NCBI GenBank assembly: GCA_040388575.1
Contig: JAZKBO010000004.1
Span: 5,400 to 69,399, forward strand
Reading direction: 5' to 3'
DNA: 64,000 nt
DNA from: Patescibacteria group bacterium
GTDB lineage: Bacteria > Patescibacteriota > Minisyncoccia > Phycocordibacterales > UBA9973
Under the pieces are notes generated by a model. That model was not told where the DNA came from. It was given only the letters and a program-made list of their open reading frames with translations, and made no database searches. This document shows, in pieces, positions 5,270 to 52,081 of this stretch (position 1 is the stretch's first letter; each line of letters starts with the position of its first letter). The translations under genes and the position numbers were made by a program.

Positions 5270-5668
5270 TTAGTATTTCGAAGTAAAAGGATTCCTCTTT
5301 GAGAGCCCTTTCATCATTTTTTTGACACTGCGAGCGCCGCGGAGGAGTAGGGTCTGGCGGCGGCCTTTGCTTTTATTTATTTCGTTATAAAGAGTCTCTT
5401 TTATTTGGTCCACCGCGGCATACAGATCCACTTCGTCAGCACTAGCATAGAACTCTTCCCCTTTGATATTAATCAAACAGTCAGCATGAAAGATCTCCCC
5501 TGTTTTATGATGATTGGTGCTTTTAGCAACTTCGAAATTCACCATTACTTCCCCACCTCCCTCTTCAATGTTCTTTAAAAGCTTTTCTAGATTGGTAACT
5601 CTCTTTTCTACATAATCATGTATGGGAGGGGTCAACTCCATATTGGTGGCCTTTAAGTTTATTTTCAT
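5270..5668 (-). CDS. hpf: ribosome hibernation-promoting factor (RaiA/HPF family)
   Basis: MKINLKATNMELTPPIHDYVEKRV... VNFEV...HADCLINIKGEEFYA... is the HPF/YfiA fold signature. The ORF could extend to 5686. Confidence 0.75.
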   Translation of the reverse strand: MKINLKATNMELTPPIHDYVEKRVTNLEKLLKNIEEGGGEVMVNFEVAKSTNHHKTGEIFHADCLINIKGEEFYASADEVDLYAAVDQIKETLYNEINKSKGRRQTLLLRGARSVKKMMKGLSKRNPFTSKY

Positions 5669-18439: not shown

Positions 18440-18844
18440 TTAAAGTGGGAGGACAGAGGTACAAAAGGCGCAGCGTTTAGCTGCAATGTTTATTTCACTT
18501 AAGCATTCCGGACACTTTTTAGTTGTCGGGTCAGCTGGGGGCTGTTTGCGCGAGCGAGAGATGAGTAGATTCATGGGCTTAATTATGAAAAAGAAAATGG
18601 AAGCCGCTACGAGAATAAAGGAGATTATTGCATTAATAAAATGCCCGTACATAAATGTGCTGCCGTGAATGGTAAAAGTAAGTCCGCTCATGTCAGGAAC
18701 TTTAATGATGGCGGAAATAAGCGGTGAAATAATATCAGCTACCAATGCGGTAACAATGGTGCCGAAAGCCCCACCAATAACTACACCCACAGCCAAATCC
18801 ACCACATTTCCCCTAAGTAAAAATTGTTTGAATTCTTTTAACAT
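18440..18844 (-). CDS. mscL: large-conductance mechanosensitive channel MscL with C-terminal CxxC...CxxC extension
   Basis: FKQFLLRGNVVDLAVGVVIGGAFG... is the MscL N-terminus/TM1. The C-terminal tail is KKCPECLSEINIAAKRCAFCTSV. Confidence 0.8.
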   Translation of the reverse strand: MLKEFKQFLLRGNVVDLAVGVVIGGAFGTIVTALVADIISPLISAIIKVPDMSGLTFTIHGSTFMYGHFINAIISFILVAASIFFFIIKPMNLLISRSRKQPPADPTTKKCPECLSEINIAAKRCAFCTSVLPL

Positions 18845-18847
18845 ATG

Positions 18848-18920
18848 TGGACCCTAGGAGACTCGAACTCCTTACCTCCTCTTTGCAAAAGAGGCGCTCT
18901 ACCAGATGAGCTAAGGGCCC
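18848..18920 (-). tRNA. tRNA-Ala (UGC)
   Basis: Cloverleaf GGGCCCTTAGCTCATCTGGTAGAGCGCCTCTTTTGCAAAGAGGAGGTAAGGAGTTCGAGTCTCCTAGGGTCCA. G3:U70 pair. Anticodon loop TTTGCAA. CCA is not encoded. Confidence 0.85.
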
Positions 18921-18943
18921 AGATTATTTTCATCCTCTGGGGG

Positions 18944-19015
18944 CTCCGGGGGTAGGGATCGAACCTACGACCAATCGCTTAACAGGCGACCGCTCTACCG
19001 CTGAGCTACCCCGGA
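18944..19015 (-). tRNA. tRNA-Asn (GUU)
   Basis: TCCGGGGTAGCTCAGCGGTAGAGCGGTCGCCTGTTAAGCGATTGGTCGTAGGTTCGATCCCTACCCCCGGAG. Anticodon loop CTGTTAA, discriminator G. Confidence 0.85.
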
Positions 19016-19107
19016 ATGGGTTTATCTCTAAAGAACCTTATCATATTAACAGAAATCTAATAAAAAACAACGCTAATTTGGATTAAAGAAATAAATTTTT
19101 TGAGTCG

Positions 19108-19136
19108 TTGACAAAGCCCTTGGAGGCGCCTATTCT
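19108..19136 (+). promoter_or_regulatory. sigma70-like promoter TTGACA-N17-TATTCT for the first G+C-rich cassette gene
   Basis: TTGACAaagcccttggaggcgccTATTCT, followed about 30 nt later by SD AAGGGAG and ATGATG at 19176. Confidence 0.45.
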
Positions 19137-19175
19137 GAATAAGAACTATCAATTGTAGACAGAAGGGAGAACTGT

Positions 19176-19730
19176 ATGATGCTCTTTGCTGCATTTGCCT
19201 TGACCGCCGTTATGAACAGCGGCTCCGGGTGTAAACCGGCAGACCTACCGAAGGAATTGACGCGGGCGGCTTGGGAGCCGTACCTCAACGCCACATTCCA
19301 TCAGTGCTTCGACCAGCTTGGTACAGACGTGGCCAAGTTCGGGGTGGTAGTGCGGAAACAGTCCAACGTGGCAACACTGGACTGTTCGGACCTGAAGCTC
19401 GGGTGTGTCGTCATTGTGAGCGATGACATACTCACCGCGGGGCTCGACCCAGGCGCAGTCGCATTCGTGCTGGGTCACGAAGCCGCACACATTCGGCTGC
19501 GCCATCCAGACTTCGCGATGATGGGTGGTATTGAGGTCGAATTCGCAGCTGATAGTTTGGCTGCAGAATCTATCGCTCAAGGCGCCTGCTACGGCGCCCG
19601 TGCCACGGATTGGGTAATGTCCCGTTACGTGAAGACAATAGGGGCTGAAGACAAAACCACAGAAGCAATGTGGTATCGGCGAATCGCCCTCCTCGGCCAG
19701 TGCGGACTTGGTGCCACTCGTTCTCGCTGA
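19176..19730 (+). CDS. putative lipoprotein zinc metallopeptidase (HExxH), G+C-rich
   Basis: Signal/lipobox ...AVMNSGSGC and the LGHEAAHIRLRH HExxH motif. The G+C content is much higher than in neighbouring genes. Confidence 0.5.
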   Translation: MMLFAAFALTAVMNSGSGCKPADLPKELTRAAWEPYLNATFHQCFDQLGTDVAKFGVVVRKQSNVATLDCSDLKLGCVVIVSDDILTAGLDPGAVAFVLGHEAAHIRLRHPDFAMMGGIEVEFAADSLAAESIAQGACYGARATDWVMSRYVKTIGAEDKTTEAMWYRRIALLGQCGLGATRSR

Positions 19731-19906
19731 AGAGTAGAAACAAACGGAACATCATCGCCTCGATCAAAAGAAGTCGCTTCGACTTCCGGTCGGGGCGATA
19801 TTCTTTTTATATAAGAAATTTCTGTATAGAAATTATGGAATTTTATCTCAAGTTCGAAGCCAGATTAGTTTTTGTAAATATTATATAGATTTGATATGAT
19901 TCATAT

Positions 19907-20185
19907 ATGAACAACGAAAGATTTAACTCATTGCGATCGCAACATATTAATACGCCAGAAAACATGACTGATGCTTTTAAAGCGTTGGAAGCAATAGTGA
20001 AGATAAAGAGTAGAGACAAATTTTACAATATTACTATTCCGGAATTAGATAGAATAGTAAAAGACAACCCCGATAAATTTCCTGGCGTCGCAGATGGTAC
20101 TGCGCTACTAAAAAAGCTTGCTCCCAATATCCGGGAGTTAAGAGCGAAGTTAAAATTACCCGAGAATATTGCCCGAGGATATTAA
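19907..20185 (+). CDS. hypothetical protein (AT-rich ORF between the two G+C-rich genes)
   Basis: 92-aa ORF MNNERFNSLRSQHINTPENMTDAFKALEAIVKIK... with no recognisable motifs. Confidence 0.35.
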   Translation: MNNERFNSLRSQHINTPENMTDAFKALEAIVKIKSRDKFYNITIPELDRIVKDNPDKFPGVADGTALLKKLAPNIRELRAKLKLPENIARGY

Positions 20186-20291
20186 AAAAACTTTACAATC
20201 AAGGCATTTTGGCTGGGAACTATTGACATTGACTTAATTTAATTACGTAGTAGGATAAACTCGAATTTCAGGTTCCTTTCAAGGAGGCTTT

Positions 20292-21092
20292 GTGACCACA
20301 CTCAAGTACGTGCTTCTCTCCATGGTGCTGGTGGCGATGGTGCCGAACATTTCAGCGGCTCAGCTCACACACAAAGACAAGGTCGTACCTCAGCCCGCAG
20401 ACGCCTGCCAAGAAGTAATCAGCTTGGCGTGTCAGGTCGAGTACGACGCGTGGTTCGCGGGAGATATGGAATGGCGCATGATATACATTCCCAACTCTCC
20501 GAACGAGAAGCTCATCCGCCGCGAAAAACTCAGATGGCTCAATTCACCGGTGCCGGTGAGGCGACCGTCCATTCCACTGTGGCTCGGGCCGCGTTGTTTA
20601 CCCGAGATGAGTTATCAGATCAAGTCGCCGATGTGTCAGGCATATGACGAGGCACTGAGATACGACTTCGTCGAGCACCTCGACAACACTTGGTCGAGCA
20701 AAACCTACACCACCCGCGTGCCGCTCAAAATTGGCGAGGGTAATGGGTTCATCGAGTACCTCTTCAGCCATCTTCACGTTGATGGAGTGCTATGGGATGG
20801 TTCCATTCAATTTGCCTTCGCTGGGACTCACTTGGAACTAGCCAAGGCCGGCCGTTACGGGATCTGGGGTGTGCCCGGGGTCATTTTCTTTCGGGAATGG
20901 AACGGGACCATAGTCATGAAAATGACTGAAGGTGCCGATGTGCACATTCGAAGCATACCCATCGGCCGATATTCGTTGCCGACATACTTCACAGTCGCGG
21001 CCCTCCTCGATGCCAACGAGGCTAAGGCTCGAAAACACGGAGTTGAGACCGGGACGGTGATAGTGGGCCTATCGTTCACTCTTTTGAAATAA
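20292..21092 (+). CDS. secreted hypothetical protein, G+C-rich (GTG start)
   Basis: SD AGGAGG lies 5 nt before GTG. Signal peptide MTTLKYVLLSMVLVAMVPNISAAQ. Several Cys residues. A TTGACT -35 box sits about 65 nt upstream. Confidence 0.5.
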   Translation: MTTLKYVLLSMVLVAMVPNISAAQLTHKDKVVPQPADACQEVISLACQVEYDAWFAGDMEWRMIYIPNSPNEKLIRREKLRWLNSPVPVRRPSIPLWLGPRCLPEMSYQIKSPMCQAYDEALRYDFVEHLDNTWSSKTYTTRVPLKIGEGNGFIEYLFSHLHVDGVLWDGSIQFAFAGTHLELAKAGRYGIWGVPGVIFFREWNGTIVMKMTEGADVHIRSIPIGRYSLPTYFTVAALLDANEAKARKHGVETGTVIVGLSFTLLK

Positions 21093-21108
21093 GAACAATG
21101 AAAAAAAA

Positions 21109-21148
21109 CCCGCGACGGAGCTTGCTCCTCGCGGGTTTCGTCGTTTTT
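21109..21148 (+). terminator. rho-independent terminator
   Basis: CCCGCGAcggagcttgctccTCGCGGG followed by TTTCGTCGTTTTT. Confidence 0.7.
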
Positions 21149-21441
21149 ATGTTATAATTACTGAGGTCGATTAATTGTTACTAATCTTAATTATTTATTT
21201 TATGTCTCTATCTTTAATGTCTATCGCAGAAATTGTTTTCTTCTTGGTTTTCGGTATCAGTAGTTTCTTTCCTTTTAAATACTCAAGGGAAATAGCCGCA
21301 ATCGCAGCTATCGTTATCGGTATCCTTTTATTGCTTGGTAAGTATTAGTAGCTTCATATAGTAAGTAGTAATTGTATTAAGACAAAGGTTTTTTGTCTTT
21401 TTGTTATATCTTTTTATAAGCGTTTCTAGTAGAATATAATA

Positions 21442-22413
21442 ATGAAGAATATTTTTATAACAAGACAAATTCCTGGTAGTGGCATAAAAATGCTCGAGGA
21501 CAAGGGTTATAGCGTCACTGTGGGTAAATATAAAATTCCACCGACTCAAGAGAAAATAATTGAAGAATTAAAGGGTAAAAATTATGATGCTGTCATTACC
21601 CTCCTGACAGACAAAATAGATACACAAGTATTCGCTGCCTCCCCTACCACTAAAATATTTGCCAACTACGCAATTGGTTACGACAATATTGATTTAGATG
21701 CAGCCGCTGCCGCTAGCATAACCATCACCAATGCTCCGGGTAACTATACTGACGGCATTGCCCAACACGCCATAGCTCTCCTTCTTGCATTAATGGCGCG
21801 CCTAAATGAAGCCGATGCTTTCATGCGCGCTGGTAAATATACCGGCTGGGATCCAATGATTTTTATTGGTGACAAGCTGGAAGGTAAAACTGTAGCCATA
21901 ATCGGTACAGGTAGGATCGGCGGTGATGTAGCTAAGATGCTCCATGGTGGCTTTGGTGTGAAAATAATTTATTACGATGTAACAAAAAATGAAAATATCG
22001 AAAAGGAGTGTGGTGCGGAATTTGTACCTTCTGTAGATGACGCCTTAGCAAAGGCTGATGTTGTCAGTATTCATGTGCCGCTACTGCCCACCACCCAACA
22101 CCTGATCAATAAAGAAAACTTGAAGAAGATGAAGCCAACTGCTTACCTTATTAACACCTCTCGTGGACCGGTAGTAGATGAAGTAGCGCTGGTAGAGGCA
22201 CTAAAGAACGGCACAATACGCGGTGCAGGATTAGATGTGTATGAATTTGAGCCAAAGCTTGCTGAAGGTCTAGCGCAACTCCCCAACACTGTACTAACTC
22301 CTCACATTGCCTCCGCTCAAAATGACTCTCGTGAAGAAATGTCTAAAGTTGTAGCGGAAAACGTTATCGACTTTCTGGAAGGTAAAATTCCTAAAAATAA
22401 AGTAAGTAAATAG
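21442..22413 (+). CDS. D-isomer-specific 2-hydroxyacid dehydrogenase (glyoxylate/hydroxypyruvate reductase-like)
   Basis: NAD-binding GTGRIGGDVAKML. Catalytic region ...HVPLLPTTQHLIN...GAGLDVYEFEP...TPHIAS. Confidence 0.75.
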   Translation: MKNIFITRQIPGSGIKMLEDKGYSVTVGKYKIPPTQEKIIEELKGKNYDAVITLLTDKIDTQVFAASPTTKIFANYAIGYDNIDLDAAAAASITITNAPGNYTDGIAQHAIALLLALMARLNEADAFMRAGKYTGWDPMIFIGDKLEGKTVAIIGTGRIGGDVAKMLHGGFGVKIIYYDVTKNENIEKECGAEFVPSVDDALAKADVVSIHVPLLPTTQHLINKENLKKMKPTAYLINTSRGPVVDEVALVEALKNGTIRGAGLDVYEFEPKLAEGLAQLPNTVLTPHIASAQNDSREEMSKVVAENVIDFLEGKIPKNKVSK

Positions 22414-22424
22414 TAAAAAACAAA

Positions 22425-22446
22425 GGCCCCCTTGCGGGGGCCTTTG
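22425..22446 (+). terminator. stem-loop (GGCCCCCttgcGGGGGCC) with a weak U-tract after the dehydrogenase gene
   Basis: Perfect 7-bp GC stem, followed only by TTTG. Confidence 0.35.
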
Positions 22447-22553
22447 CGGCACATATGAAGTTTCGATAAAGATGAGTTAACCTCACCCTCACAATTAGAG
22501 TATAGCATACTTTTAAAAAAATTGCAAGCAAGGGGAATATATGCAATAATACT

Positions 22554-22848
22554 AGGGTAGGTGTTGGGTAATTACTCCGACCCAGGTCGGAGAGGAAAGT
22601 CCGAACACACAGCCTTTTAATAGGCAAACGTAGCGGGTAACGCCCGCCGGCAGCAATGCTCGAGGTGCGAACAGTGACGAACCGATTTAGTTCGGGTGAA
22701 ACGGCAAAATCCTTACGCGTGTGCAAGATCGTGCCCTAGCGCAAGTTGGGGAGAATCGCTTGAGCCTGTCAGTAATGGCTGGCCTAGATAAATTGTTACC
22801 GTCCACCGCAAGGTGAACCACAGAATTCGGCTTATAAACACCTACAAG
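22554..22848 (+). ncRNA. rnpB: RNase P RNA (bacterial type A, minimised)
   Basis: P1 pairing (GGGTAGGTGTT...AACACCTAC). P4 5' strand GAGAGGAAAGTCCGAAC and 3' strand ACAGAATTCGGCTTATAA, with compensatory CCGAA/TTCGG. GGGTAACGCCCGCC and GGGTGAAACGG elements. An upstream TTGCAA-N17-AATAAT promoter and a downstream terminator are present. Confidence 0.7.
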
Positions 22849-22856
22849 AAAATGAG

Positions 22857-44782: not shown

Positions 44783-45430
44783 TTATTTCCTCTTCTTCCA
44801 CTCCTCTATCTTGGCGTGATTTCCAGAAAGCAAAACTTTAGGCACACGGTAGTTTTTACCCTTATGTTTAAGGATTTCAGGGCGAGTGTAAACTTCACTA
44901 GAGGAAACTCGTTCTTCTTCGAGCGATTCGTATTTACCCAGAACGCCAGGGATTTGGCGGGAAATGGAGTCGATCAGGATCATGGCTGGCAGCTCCCCGC
45001 CAGTTACTACATAGTCCCCTATGGAGTATTTCTTGGTCTTAAAAATTTTATCCACGCGTGCATCAATGCCTTCGTACCTGCCACAAATTAAAATAATATC
45101 TTTGTAATTTTTAGATAACTTTTTTGCTTCACCGGTGGTAAACTTTTCTGCAGTTGGAATAAAATTTATTACCAGAACTTTTCCCTTCGATTTACTCAGG
45201 GCCTTCGCCACTGCTGCGGCTACGGGCTCCGCCCTCATTACCATACCAGGCCCGCCGCCATAAGGCTTGTCGTCCACTGGCCTGTAATTATTCTTGGGTG
45301 CTTTAATGAAGTCCCGTGGATTATAAAATTTAATATCAATATGCTTATTCTTTATCGCCCGGCCAATAATAGACTCATTTAAATATGAGTCGAACATGTC
45401 CGGAAAAATTGTAATTATGTGAAAATTCAT
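44783..45430 (-). CDS. trmD: tRNA (guanine37-N1)-methyltransferase
   Basis: MNFHIITIFPDMFDSYLNESIIGRA... and GGELPAMILIDSISR (SPOUT knot). Confidence 0.85.
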   Translation of the reverse strand: MNFHIITIFPDMFDSYLNESIIGRAIKNKHIDIKFYNPRDFIKAPKNNYRPVDDKPYGGGPGMVMRAEPVAAAVAKALSKSKGKVLVINFIPTAEKFTTGEAKKLSKNYKDIILICGRYEGIDARVDKIFKTKKYSIGDYVVTGGELPAMILIDSISRQIPGVLGKYESLEEERVSSSEVYTRPEILKHKGKNYRVPKVLLSGNHAKIEEWKKRK

Positions 45431-45517
45431 TCTTGTTTTACTTTGTATTTATATCACAAATTCATTAAAAGTAGTGACGGCCGGCAACCTTCTGGTTGCC
45501 GGCCTGTTCACGATGCT

Positions 45518-45745
45518 TCAGCGTGCGTGCAGTCTGTAGTGGTAGATGCTGTTCCATTGGATGGCACGGAGCCCACGCGTCGCAGCCCAGCTATCGACTT
45601 GGGCTGGCAGTTCGCTGTCCGGCATTACACCGGCCTCGGCAAGAAACGCCTTGAGCTCCTCCACCATTTGGGGTTGCGGTCCCGCGTCGCCCAGGATTCG
45701 GATATCTCTATTGTGCATCCACACTTCGTAAAGAGCCTTCGTCAT
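45518..45745 (-). CDS. G+C-rich hypothetical protein, 75 aa (cassette C1)
   Basis: Promoter TTGACT-N16-CATAAT (45765-45792). SD GAGGGT, ATG at 45745 (MTKALYEVWMHNRD...). A GGCCGGCAACCttctGGTTGCCGGCC hairpin lies downstream. The ORF is open to 45796. Confidence 0.45.
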   Translation of the reverse strand: MTKALYEVWMHNRDIRILGDAGPQPQMVEELKAFLAEAGVMPDSELPAQVDSWAATRGLRAIQWNSIYHYRLHAR

Positions 45746-45764
45746 GTTAGGTACCCTCAATACT

Positions 45765-45792
45765 ATTATGTCACTTTTATATAAAAAGTCAA
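45765..45792 (-). promoter_or_regulatory. sigma70 promoter with extended -10 (TTGACT-N16-tgaCATAAT) driving cassette C1
   Basis: Part of a ~28-bp element, tcacttttatataaaaagtcaaacaaaa, that is repeated at 46321-46348. Confidence 0.5.
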
Positions 45793-45871
45793 ACAAAATT
45801 CTTTATTAAAATAGTTATGGCCGGCCTCATCTTTCGATAAGTCCGGCCACGTTGCTTGAGCCTTATGGCTC

Positions 45872-46264
45872 TTACTGCACGATTTGCACCGGCAGCTGGA
45901 TGTACGCTGGGAACTGATGAGTCGCGTCGTGCACTTCGACCCACCACTGATCCTTCTTCCACTTGCCGCCGACTTCCATGCCCACTTGTGCGGCCAGGCA
46001 GCCCATTGCTCCCCATTCCTCACCCTTGTCATTGAGCAATGAGTAGCGGTCCATATCGAGCGTGACCGCCCCGAGCTTGGCCGTCATCCGGCCATGCCGC
46101 TGGAGGTCGGGGTTCCTGGCAGGCGGGACCGGTCTTACCGGCACCTCCGTTACGGCGGGAGCGACAGTGGTCGAGCACGGCTTCCCTTTCATGAGGCCGA
46201 TGCCCAGACCCACCAAAGCCCCCACCATGAAAACGTTAAACAAGCCAATCCCTCTTCGAAACAT
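45872..46264 (-). CDS. G+C-rich hypothetical membrane-anchored protein, 130 aa (cassette C2)
   Basis: Promoter TTGACT-N16-TATAAT (46315-46342) with TGn. SD AGGAG lies 4 nt before ATG. N-terminal TM (GLFNVFMVGALVGLGIGL), then a Pro-rich linker. Long hairpin TGGCCGGACTTATCGaaaGATGAGGCCGGCCA plus a U-rich tract downstream. Confidence 0.5.
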   Translation of the reverse strand: MFRRGIGLFNVFMVGALVGLGIGLMKGKPCSTTVAPAVTEVPVRPVPPARNPDLQRHGRMTAKLGAVTLDMDRYSLLNDKGEEWGAMGCLAAQVGMEVGGKWKKDQWWVEVHDATHQFPAYIQLPVQIVQ

Positions 46265-46314
46265 ATTACTCCTGTCTGCGCATCCAAGCGCCTTAATCGA
46301 GATACTTACTACTA

Positions 46315-46342
46315 TATTATATCACTTTTGTATAAAAAGTCA
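46315..46342 (-). promoter_or_regulatory. near-consensus sigma70 promoter (TTGACT-N16-TGaTATAAT) driving cassette C2
   Basis: Second copy of the repeated promoter element. It lies directly downstream of the khpA terminator. Confidence 0.55.
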
Positions 46343-46368
46343 AACAAAAAACTCCGACCTGGGTCGGA
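46341..46368 (-). terminator. rho-independent terminator of khpA (bidirectional hairpin CTCCGACCtggGTCGGAG)
   Basis: On the minus strand the hairpin is followed by TTTTTTGTTT. On the plus strand it is followed by CTCTTTGTTTTTATATTTTT. Confidence 0.6.
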
Positions 46369-46396
46369 GCTCTTTGTTTTTATATTTTTCTAGAAA

Positions 46397-46801
46397 CTAA
46401 ATACCCTTAAGGTCCTCCATTGCTTCATCCACAGTTTTAAGTGAAGAAGGTGCTGCGCCTGGGGATCTCTCTCCTGGAGCTCGAGGTGGGATGTCACTGG
46501 TTGTGCCCATTCCCCCATCCATGCCTCGGTCGCCGCCATGGCCTCCGGTACCGCCTTCAGGCTCGTTAATCTTCAAGTTCACGCGAGCATTATTCTTCAT
46601 ACCTATGATGCGGAGCAATGTGCGGATAGCTTTAGCAGTGTTGCCCATGCGGCCGATGATTTTACCCATGTCTGCTGGGTTAACTGTCAGGGTTATAAGT
46701 ACGCCCATTTCGTCGACTGTCCTATCGATCTTTACATCATTTGGATTGTCAACGAGAGCCTTAACTACATATTCTAGAAATACTTTGTCTGCGTCTTGCA
46801 T
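46397..46801 (-). CDS. khpA: KH-domain RNA-binding protein KhpA (YlqC-like) with Gly/Pro-rich C-terminal tail
   Basis: KH core VNPADMGKIIGRMGNTAKAIRTLL. Lies downstream of rpsP, as in the canonical rpsP-khpA-rimM-trmD operon. Tail GGTGGHGGDRGMDGGMG... Confidence 0.7.
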   Translation of the reverse strand: MQDADKVFLEYVVKALVDNPNDVKIDRTVDEMGVLITLTVNPADMGKIIGRMGNTAKAIRTLLRIIGMKNNARVNLKINEPEGGTGGHGGDRGMDGGMGTTSDIPPRAPGERSPGAAPSSLKTVDEAMEDLKGI

Positions 46802-51118: not shown

Positions 51119-51131
51119 AAAGTGATATGCT
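51104..51131 (+). promoter_or_regulatory. sigma70 promoter TTGATT-N16-TGaTATGCT at the head of G+C-rich cassette D
   Basis: TTGATTccaaattaaaaagtgaTATGCT. It shares the aaaagtgaTAT spacer/extended -10 with the C1/C2 promoters. It overlaps the stop of the dac/capA gene. Confidence 0.45.
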
Positions 51132-51175
51132 CTAACTGAATACCTGCCACTCTAGTTCACCATCAAGGAGGTCCC

Positions 51176-51316
51176 TTGGCGAACGGACAGAATACCAAAC
51201 TCGTGCCCATGATCTTGTTCATCCTCGTAATCTTGGCGGTGCTCACTATCGTCGATAGTAAGAAGGTGACGACGCCTTACGGCTTCACCTTCCCCTGCCA
51301 GGGCTGCACGCACTAG
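51176..51316 (+). CDS. putative small membrane peptide (46 aa, TTG start) in G+C-rich cassette D
   Basis: SD AAGGAGG lies 4 nt before TTG. The peptide has one TM helix (MILFILVILAVLTIV) and a C-terminal CQGC. An alternative, minus-strand ORF 51152..51472 is considered less likely. Confidence 0.3.
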   Translation: MANGQNTKLVPMILFILVILAVLTIVDSKKVTTPYGFTFPCQGCTH

Positions 51317-51323
51317 GTGCACG

Positions 51324-51440
51324 ATGAAGGAAGAAGACAGCCTGTGGGCGTGGGCCAAACTGATTGGTCTACTGTTATTAGTTGAGGGCCTCCCGCTCGG
51401 TGCCCTCGCCTTCCTCATCCGGTGGAAGTTCGGAAAGTAA
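51324..51440 (+). CDS. putative small membrane peptide (38 aa) in cassette D
   Basis: MKEEDSLWAWAKLIGLLLLVEGLPLGALAFLIRWKFGK, with one TM helix and a weak SD. Confidence 0.25.
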   Translation: MKEEDSLWAWAKLIGLLLLVEGLPLGALAFLIRWKFGK

Positions 51441-51535
51441 CGCATGCCGGCGGCCCCTTGGGTCGCCGGCAAAATCGTTTGTGGGTGTATAATTAGTGAG
51501 TATGCTGTTCCTGGGCGCTTAAGACTGGAGGGTCT

Positions 51536-51997
51536 ATGAATCGTCTGGCTTTCGTAGTCGTCGTAGCGGTGGTGTTTCTTGCTGGCGTAGCAGCCGGCAA
51601 AGCAACTTCACCTGTCGAGAATGATCTCGCACTTCGCCAGGCAGAGAGTCGCGAGGCCATGCTGATGCTCGCCTTCGTTGAGCTCAAGGTGGAGAACATG
51701 GCGATGGAGGAGCAGCTCCAATCCTGGAAAGATGCCGCTGCTCCGCTTAACACCATGTATTTCACGGAGGCAGCCTACGTCGACATGGGTCTCCACGAAT
51801 ATTTCGAGAAGTTCTATCCGGACATGGTGATGAATGCAGTGAAGCTGCGCAAACTCACTCATCCATGTCAGGTTGACCCTCGACGTTGGGGTTGCTCCTG
51901 GTACGGAAAGAATTACGTACCGGTTTACGTGGAAATCCAGCGGCCATTCTCAATATCCATGAGCCTAGCTGGGCACATGGACTCCCCGAGGAAGTGA
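51536..51997 (+). CDS. G+C-rich secreted/membrane-anchored hypothetical protein, 153 aa (cassette D)
   Basis: SD GGAGGG lies 4 nt before ATG. Signal/TM segment MNRLAFVVVVAVVFLAGVAAG. Cys pair CQVDPRRWGC. A GCGGCCGG...CCGGCCGC hairpin lies downstream. Confidence 0.5.
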   Translation: MNRLAFVVVVAVVFLAGVAAGKATSPVENDLALRQAESREAMLMLAFVELKVENMAMEEQLQSWKDAAAPLNTMYFTEAAYVDMGLHEYFEKFYPDMVMNAVKLRKLTHPCQVDPRRWGCSWYGKNYVPVYVEIQRPFSISMSLAGHMDSPRK

Positions 51998-52081
51998 ATA
52001 AATTGAGTTTCGGGGGACATCCCCAGAACACGCGGCCGGCGATCTCTCGATCCCCGGCCGCAAACTCATTTAAATTAAAAT

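Follow-up and report, generated by a model that had tools for sequence, protein, structure and literature searches.

Probable stepwise acquisition of G+C-rich exported-protein genes beside tRNA-Asn in a Patescibacteria genome

Large-scale reports describe genomic islands and individually transferred genes in the Patescibacteria, with donors that include Omnitrophota, Bacteroidota and Methylomirabilota (PMC12455944). Horizontal gene transfer into these streamlined genomes is already documented, and the locus described here leaves that picture unchanged and is a further example of a known phenomenon. We analyzed a 64,000-nt stretch of a Patescibacteria group bacterium (assembly GCA_040388575.1, contig JAZKBO010000004.1 of 118,930 bp, positions 5,400 to 69,399; hereafter the window, within which positions are numbered). 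In it, cassette A (19016-21148) carries a gene for an M48-like HExxH zinc metalloprotease, a 92-aa open reading frame (ORF) and a gene for an exported 266-aa protein of a family that we call fam266. Cassette A resembles the tRNA-linked integrative islands in its tRNA-adjacent position and its accessory cargo of foreign composition, and differs from them in lying on the 5' side of the tRNA and in having neither an integrase nor an att duplication. Its placement on the 5' side of both tRNA-Asn and tRNA-Ala, claimed in the initial annotation, is borne out by ARAGORN and Rfam. We conclude that the locus was probably assembled by stepwise horizontal acquisition of self-contained exported-protein genes at a flexible intergenic site of a Paceibacteria-type genome, in at least two steps.

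Composition and history of the locus

The window has a mean G+C content of 0.429 (42.9%), above the background of 35-40% that had been estimated by eye. The 300-nt profile lies at 0.43-0.44 to the left of the island, rises to 0.54-0.59 across 19100-19700, falls to 0.35-0.37 across 19700-20300, rises again to 0.54-0.57 across 20300-21050, and drops to 0.31-0.37 beyond. At third codon positions, the G+C content (GC3) of 57 background ORFs is 0.410 ± 0.063 with a maximum of 0.536; the M48-like and fam266 genes exceed this mean by 3.4 and 4.0 standard deviations, respectively (Table 1). None of the 329 background windows of 700 nt reaches the tetranucleotide distance from background seen for both G+C-rich genes. 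The atypical composition proposed in the initial annotation is thus confirmed by G+C content, GC3 and tetranucleotide signature. In both genes the G+C excess is largest at third codon positions, and amino-acid content therefore fails to explain it.

The history of the locus can be read in part from a relative, L001, a 1,292-bp Logan contig from run SRR26786769. It encodes P0003, the one relative found by a word-based search of 5.8 billion protein clusters and 64% identical to the 266-aa protein of the window. L001 starts inside tRNA-Asn and continues through the flank, an A+T-rich promoter, the fam266 gene and a G+C-rich terminator; homology with the window ends just past the terminator. The gene (242-1045) has a G+C content of 0.525 and a GC3 of 0.66 between flanks of 0.32-0.34, and the promoter is conserved, with the common stretch ACATTGACTT.ATT.A..TA.GTAGTAGGAT. 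Since L001 has fam266 at the tRNA-Asn flank with the same promoter and terminator and without the M48-like gene and the 92-aa ORF, cassette A is not the two-gene insertion it had been taken for. Of the insert-less tRNA locus envisaged in the initial annotation, L001 supplies one half: the M48/92-aa segment is absent from it and fam266 is present.

The fam266 alleles of the window and L001 differ by 1.03 synonymous (dS) and 0.26 nonsynonymous (dN) substitutions per site (dN/dS 0.25, Nei-Gojobori). This level of divergence and constraint, together with the shared tRNA-Asn flank, indicates that fam266 has long been at the locus and under purifying selection, and the comparison of the two alleles points to a functional gene. 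That a relative has the gene at this locus, and with similar composition, argues against recent acquisition of fam266, not against its foreign origin, for which the initial annotation had taken such a finding as a test. Along the gene, dS is uneven, at 1.65, 1.94, 0.82 and 0.62 in successive quarters, and the terminator that follows is nearly the same in both; a mosaic or recombinant allele is possible.

Upstream of fam266, the window and L001 match at 99% over 105 nt (18970-19074). This match is no sign of recent common ancestry, because many metagenomic contigs of Patescibacteria (many of the loci L097-L216) have the motif AAAGAAC..TTATCAT.TTAACAGAAA upstream of this tRNA-Asn; the conserved stretch is probably the tRNA-Asn promoter or leader. 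Beyond it begins the segment that is absent from L001. The 92-aa ORF occurs wherever the M48-like gene occurs, and both are missing from L001. The segment is mixed in composition, which argues against a single donor fragment.

The region was also inspected for signs of mobility. Direct and inverted repeats are limited to chance-level matches of 11-22 nt, a Pfam scan of the ten flanking genes (both sides) and of the island ORFs gave no recombinase, and no transposase, att site or target duplication is recognizable in the region; the statement of the initial annotation that no integrase or att repeat is visible holds. A tRNA-targeted integrative island was rejected in the absence of an integrase and of an att duplicate of the tRNA 3' end, and given the position of the island on the 5' side. 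An integron cassette was rejected as well: there is no intI, and each 3' hairpin is a G+C stem with a T-run behind it, of the intrinsic-terminator type; no attC-type imperfect palindrome was seen on inspection, with no attC model run. A prophage was rejected for lack of phage genes and of any PHROG match above noise.

The sequence of events that we propose would begin with an old step, the uptake of a gene from the rare fam266 family of Sec-exported proteins of ~260 aa, the most likely source being a high-G+C bacterium. The gene would have settled beside the tRNA-Asn promoter, where it has an A+T-rich promoter of the sigma-70 type and ends in a G+C-rich terminator of its own. Purifying selection would then have kept the gene as its synonymous sites drifted slowly towards the low G+C of the host. 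In a later step (or one whose product was lost in L001), a segment of ~1.1 kb, seen in this lineage alone, would have come to separate fam266 from the tRNA flank, bringing the G+C-rich M48-like gene with its own promoter and terminator and the A+T-rich 92-aa ORF. As no recombinase or repeat is present, the DNA would have been taken up and joined by illegitimate recombination to an intergenic site that tolerates insertion next to the tRNA promoter, with an A+T-rich promoter of host-like composition then driving expression of each imported gene.

Table 1 Features of cassette A, its tRNA flank and two further G+C-rich islets of the window
Feature	Position	Strand	Length	G+C	GC3	Basis or remark
tRNA-Ala (UGC)	18847..18920	-				ARAGORN; Rfam tRNA 65.4 bits
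tRNA-Asn (GUU), 5' end towards island	18941..19016	-				ARAGORN; Rfam tRNA 70.2 bits
Conserved tRNA-Asn upstream flank	19017..19074	-				Last stretch common to L001 before M48 segment
Segment with M48-like unit and 92-aa ORF, in this lineage, absent from L001	19075 to ~20191	+				Window-L001 alignment; right boundary approximate
Promoter-like site TTGACA-17-TATTCT	19108..19136	+				10/12 consensus match; consensus match only
M48-like HExxH zinc-metalloprotease gene	19176..19730	+	184 aa	0.578	0.627	Pfam PF01435
Intrinsic-terminator-like hairpin (19773-19799) and T-run	19773..19808	+				12-pair stem, then ATTCTTTTTA
Promoter-like site with TG extension, upstream of 92-aa ORF	19872..19900	+				Consensus match
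92-aa ORF, host-like composition	19907..20185	+	92 aa	0.373	0.355	ORF list; called as gene on L090 and L091
Promoter-like site TTGACT-16-TAGGAT, A+T-rich	20229..20256	+				Consensus match; overlapping TTGACA at 20223-20228
fam266 gene, exported protein of rare unnamed family	20292..21092	+	266 aa	0.544	0.663	HMMER family, alignment A3
G+C-rich intrinsic-terminator hairpin (21112-21144) and T-run	21109..21150	+				14-pair stem, then TTTTATG; near-identical in L001
Islet between KH-domain gene and trmD	45430..46400	-	ORFs of 130 aa and 75-92 aa	0.60 (130-aa ORF)	0.75 (130-aa ORF)
Islet between 633-aa gene and 713-aa gene	51120..52080		153-aa protein (51536-51997, +)	0.54-0.57

The fam266 family and the M48-like protease

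Exhaustive HMMER searching with a two-sequence profile across 1.84 billion cluster representatives recovered only 19 fam266 proteins at E≤1e-3, mostly 250-295 aa long; a further word-based protein search with the family alignment returned 3 proteins only. No Pfam, NCBIfam, PADLOC or PHROG model matches fam266, Pfam scans of all members are empty, and the family profile finds no sequence relative in the PDB. fam266 is a rare protein family that had not been described before. The GTG start at 20292 and the AGGAGG at 20282-20287 agree with the initial annotation, and the start is further supported by an ATG (MTTLRF...) at the homologous position in L094. The promoter and hairpin-terminator calls of the initial annotation for both G+C-rich genes are likewise reproduced, as consensus matches.

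Alignment A3 of the family shows a signal peptide with an A-x-A|Q cleavage site (SAA|Q in the window protein), four conserved cysteines, the motifs RPxxPxW, YDWxxH, NxHxDGxWT and GxHLTLAxxGRxxxWGxPG, and a C-terminal motif, G-[LF]-S-x-T-x-[KR]. AlphaFold2 run with two sequences gave an unusable model (predicted local distance difference test score, pLDDT, of 38), and with the 19-sequence alignment A3 it reached a pLDDT of 80; in the latter model the N-terminal half is helical, and long antiparallel strands make up the C-terminal half (residues 161-263). A Foldseek comparison of this model with PDB and BFVD returned no significant match; the best of the weak ones are small beta-barrels such as PagP, designed transmembrane barrels, lipocalins and avidins, and phage proteins resembling outer-membrane proteins, with E≥0.05 (barrel-type best 0.05-0.1) and TM-scores ≤0.3. 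An outer-membrane beta-barrel was therefore rejected for the C-terminal half: the fold match is insignificant, and the C-termini end in Lys or Arg rather than in an aromatic residue, which disfavors a classical barrel. We expect the fam266 product to be an exported, disulfide-bonded protein with an alpha-helical N-terminal half and a beta-rich C-terminal half that acts at the envelope or surface.

fam266 genes occur in genomes of widely different base composition. In high-G+C contigs they are found with Peptidase S8 and ExbD (L083, a 1.3-Mb contig with a G+C content of 0.66; gene G+C 0.595, GC3 0.80), with an extracytoplasmic-function (ECF) sigma factor, a Ser/Thr kinase and PEP-CTERM (L085-L088; contig 0.69, gene 0.60, GC3 0.81), and with outer-membrane barrels and an ECF sigma factor (L089; contig 0.655, gene 0.58, GC3 0.78). 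One member, P0014, is annotated from a Methylomirabilota metagenome-assembled genome. Among the contigs of lower G+C content, L084 (assembly GCA_025450105.1, 9485-11751; flanks ~0.44, genes 0.53-0.55, GC3 0.71 for P0009) has two tandem paralogues and a G+C-rich 165-aa ORF at uvrB-ruvA; L095 (4068-4895) and L096 (2181-3008; flanks 0.44 and gene 0.53, GC3 0.63 in both contigs) also carry the gene between uvrB and ruvA, syntenic with L084, to whose UvrB theirs is 81% identical. L094 (flank 0.42, gene 0.49, GC3 0.56) encodes an unrelated 172-aa HExxH protein (1100-1618; IIAHELAHAFD) directly after fam266, which may be a coincidence or a recurrent pairing with small metalloproteases. In the low-G+C genomes examined (at least three contexts), fam266 is every time a G+C-rich single gene. 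In A+T-rich hosts it stands out at its synonymous sites; in G+C-rich hosts its GC3 is high (0.78-0.81) and its total G+C content lies below that of the contig. This asymmetry is our main reason for proposing transfer from high- to low-G+C genomes followed by slow drift to host composition. The high-G+C donor put forward in the initial annotation is thus plausible for fam266, whose sole relatives beyond low-G+C genomes lie in contigs of 65-69% G+C; the gene itself is a long-standing resident of the locus, not a recent arrival. fam266 is common to high-G+C soil-type bacteria and low-G+C ultra-small genomes.

The M48-like protein matches Pfam PF01435 (M48) with E=1.6e-7 and 31.8 bits against a gathering cutoff of 20.3, over profile positions 5-113 of 186 only. 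The HExxH zinc-peptidase motif reported in the initial annotation is present as HEAAH at residues 101-105 (H101 and H105; codons 19476-19490), and on reading of the sequence, E120 or E122 in EVEFAAD (residues 120-126) is a candidate third zinc ligand. The resulting spacing is much shorter than in BepA-type enzymes. The N terminus, MMLFAAFALTAVMNSGSG-C19, combines a hydrophobic h-region with a cysteine (GSG-C19), has Gly at -3, and contains neither Lys nor Arg. The earlier lipoprotein call is accordingly tentative: the hydrophobic N terminus with Cys19 speaks for it and the lack of a basic n-region against it. NCBI annotates a shorter, 172-aa product without the hydrophobic segment and Cys19; the ATG at 19176 is preceded by GGGAG at 7-nt spacing, a better Shine-Dalgarno sequence than that of the 172-aa version, and gene calls on two other assemblies also give 184 aa.

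Among M48 peptidases (HtpX and the lipoproteins YcaL, LoiP and BepA), an N-terminal hydrophobic segment fits an extracytoplasmic, membrane-anchored enzyme. The window protein shares with this group the HExxH motif, a PF01435 score above cutoff and the N-terminal hydrophobic segment, and differs in its length of only 184 aa, its partial profile coverage, and an HExxH region that also resembles Lit/U49. The PADLOC match to Lit (E=7e-6) is limited to residues 94-138 around HExxH, and the Lit/peptidase U49 phage-exclusion protease was rejected, as the similarity is not full-length and the NCBIfam Lit model scores 17.6 bits against a cutoff of 274. The M48-like protein has no PDB sequence relative at E≤1 and no relative in viral contigs. 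A word-based search found the protein itself alone, a method that also missed 43%-identical fam266 relatives, with no sensitive search made, so that orphan status cannot be claimed for it. We expect the product to be a membrane-anchored extracytoplasmic zinc protease acting at the envelope or surface.

The 92-aa ORF between the two genes has no signal peptide and no match in Pfam, NCBIfam or PADLOC, and its PHROG match is weak. As the -10 box of its promoter-like site ends 6 nt before the ATG, the ORF is possibly leaderless.

Weighing the origin of the cassette

Several observations weigh against stepwise acquisition from a high-G+C source. The total G+C content of fam266 lies 6-9 points below its surroundings in the high-G+C contigs, and the gene may be accessory in those genomes too, so that the direction of transfer is one that we infer. 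The nearest high-G+C relatives of the window fam266 are only 31-34% identical, and no donor is identified among them. In a neighbor-joining tree, the sole supported clade joins the window, L001 and L094 (100% bootstrap), which leaves the number of transfers unsettled. The high GC3 kept despite a dS of ~1 fits partial drift, or selection on composition. The case for a foreign M48-like gene is its composition and its absence from L001, and the lack of its segment there could equally be a deletion in the L001 lineage.

Selection on composition is also central to the view that the genes are native and vertically inherited, with selection on mRNA or protein keeping their G+C high. The occupancy of the same locus in L001 despite a dS of ~1, with a GC3 of 0.66 in both alleles, fits this view, as does the syntenic uvrB-ruvA placement of fam266 in a second low-G+C lineage. 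We nevertheless consider it unlikely: the excess is strongest at third codon positions, fam266 is extremely rare and patchy and occurs as well in high-G+C bacteria that are unrelated and have outer-membrane genes, L001 lacks the M48 segment, and the presence of four unrelated G+C-rich islets within 64 kb favors a shared process of import.

It is likewise improbable, on our assessment, that the G+C-rich single-gene units of cassette A and of the two further islets are genes for envelope and secreted proteins that were captured from the bacterium's own high-G+C host (possibly a member of the Acidobacteriota) and redeployed at the symbiont-host interface. Were this so, fam266 would be a host-type periplasmic or outer-membrane-associated protein in a surface-attached symbiont without an outer membrane, and the islets would be a genomic fingerprint of host identity for uncultured Paceibacteria. 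The persistent high GC3 would then point to repeated re-acquisition or to allele exchange with the host gene pool, which the uneven dS along fam266 (1.6-1.9 in the 5' half and 0.6-0.8 in the 3' half) would fit.

A further possibility is that cassette A is the remnant of a recombinase-borne integrative element at the tRNA-Asn flank whose recombinase and att sites have since been lost. L185, another Patescibacteria contig that carries this tRNA-Asn, encodes a large serine recombinase with Resolvase, Recombinase and Zn_ribbon_recom domains at 0.5-2.3 kb from the tRNA 5' end, and G+C-rich secreted-protein genes occupy the same flank in L115 (Amidase_3, G+C 0.59) and L117 (three Big_7 domains, 0.55). 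Against such a remnant stand the lack of a recombinase in the ten flanking genes, the chance level of the repeats, and the position of the island on the tRNA 5' side. In addition, among 120 metagenome contigs sharing the 5' half of tRNA-Asn, G+C jumps of at least 0.12 are equally common on the other side of the tRNA (10/73 versus 7/68), and by this statistic, which is crude and confounded by neighboring tRNA genes, the 5' flank shows no excess over the 3' side that would mark it as a side-specific hotspot. We regard a lost element as quite unlikely.

The protease and fam266 could instead form a functional pair acquired as a module, either as protease and substrate or partner or as a toxin-immunity cassette that includes the 92-aa ORF. 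The HExxH gene of the window lies 0.56 kb upstream of fam266, and in L094, which has the nearest fam266 relative outside the window and L001, fam266 is directly followed by its 172-aa HExxH protein. The two HExxH proteins are, however, unrelated beyond the motif (BLASTP E=0.35), L001, L084 and L095 carry fam266 without such a protease, and in the window the three ORFs have separate promoters and terminators and discordant G+C contents (0.58, 0.37 and 0.54), making a module very unlikely.

An assembly or binning chimera, in which foreign G+C-rich reads were spliced into a Patescibacteria contig, might be suspected from the abrupt composition switches in a metagenome-assembled genome and is scarcely credible, because independent assemblies reproduce every A+T-rich/G+C-rich junction: Logan contigs of run SRR26324622 are 100% identical to the window over 18989-20724 (L090) and 20696-22690 (L082), L091 (metagenome assembly GCA_040384165.1) is identical apart from a run of Ns, and L001, from a different sequencing run, shows the same architecture of tRNA, A+T-rich promoter, G+C-rich gene, terminator and A+T-rich DNA.

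Neighboring features, further islets and comparison with known systems

The MscL gene (18440-18844, minus strand) adjoins the tRNA pair, and its best matches, at 71-79% identity, are in Zambryskibacteria, Nomurabacteria and other Parcubacteria/Paceibacteria assemblies. A search of species representatives anchored on MscL found that its linkage to tRNA-Ala and tRNA-Asn is not conserved, and because this synteny is not kept there, the representatives give no empty-site comparison. An exact 29-nt pattern from the tRNA flank found no match in Joint Genome Institute (JGI) metagenomes. MscL has a C-terminal zinc-ribbon-like tail (UPF0547) and is 60-68% identical to MscL of many Terriglobia/Acidobacteriota, Dormibacterota and Binatus assemblies (L022, L026, L035, L042 and others); cross-phylum identity this unusually high suggests gene exchange between soil Paceibacteria and those groups.

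Further features concern the tRNA-Asn flank and the region downstream. L209 is a third contig with a G+C-rich secreted-protein gene at the tRNA-Asn 5' flank, and the flank of L185 also has a GIY-YIG-like ORF of ~82 aa, judged by eye. Between the fam266 terminator and a 2-hydroxyacid dehydrogenase gene of the window lies a small, A+T-rich and very hydrophobic ORF of 48-57 aa (21175-21348, plus strand); a 68%-identical peptide occurs in L158, and the ORF may encode a real small membrane protein. Just downstream of the dehydrogenase gene is a bacterial class A RNase P RNA (22556-22850, plus strand; 122 bits), which is compact, the match covering 295 nt against a model of 367 positions.

Cassette A is one instance of a recurrent pattern in this genome. 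In the islet between the KH-domain gene and trmD, each ORF follows a near-identical copy of an A+T-rich promoter, TTGACTTTTTATAYAAAAGTGAYATAATA, at 46315-46343 and 45764-45792 (0 expected by chance), and each ends in a GGCCGG-rich hairpin; a degenerate third copy of the promoter may adjoin trmD upstream. The duplication hints at a bearing of the promoter on insertion or expression of the cassettes. In the islet between the 633-aa and 713-aa genes, the 153-aa protein has an N-terminal hydrophobic segment, as in a signal or transmembrane protein, and it matches no family. Two tiny membrane peptides of ~47 and ~38 aa, with starts near 51176 and 51327, are possible by eye, and GCCGGC-rich hairpins follow. 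Apart from fam266 itself, the four G+C-rich islets share no homology with one another or with the other loci compared.

Import into such genomes can consist of single genes, each with a promoter and a terminator, placed between housekeeping genes and tRNAs without mobility machinery. Units of 0.7-0.9 kb are likely below the size reported by island predictors and so are likely missed. Should the donors become known, genes of this kind could serve as a clue to the hosts of uncultured Paceibacteria.

With the genomic islands of Patescibacteria, or the candidate phyla radiation, the locus shares atypical accessory DNA in a streamlined genome, patchy distribution and relatives in other phyla (PMC12455944), and Methylomirabilota is common to the donor table of that study and the annotated source of one fam266 member. 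It differs from them in that each unit is one gene of 0.7-0.9 kb that has its own promoter and terminator and lacks a mobility gene, and in that one unit is old (dS ~1) yet still G+C-rich. The closest architectural analogy is with the phage morons, which are likewise autonomous promoter-gene-terminator units of deviant G+C content, here set between host-like A+T-rich flanks. Cassette A differs from morons in lacking a prophage context or viral-contig relatives, and its neighbors are housekeeping genes and tRNAs.

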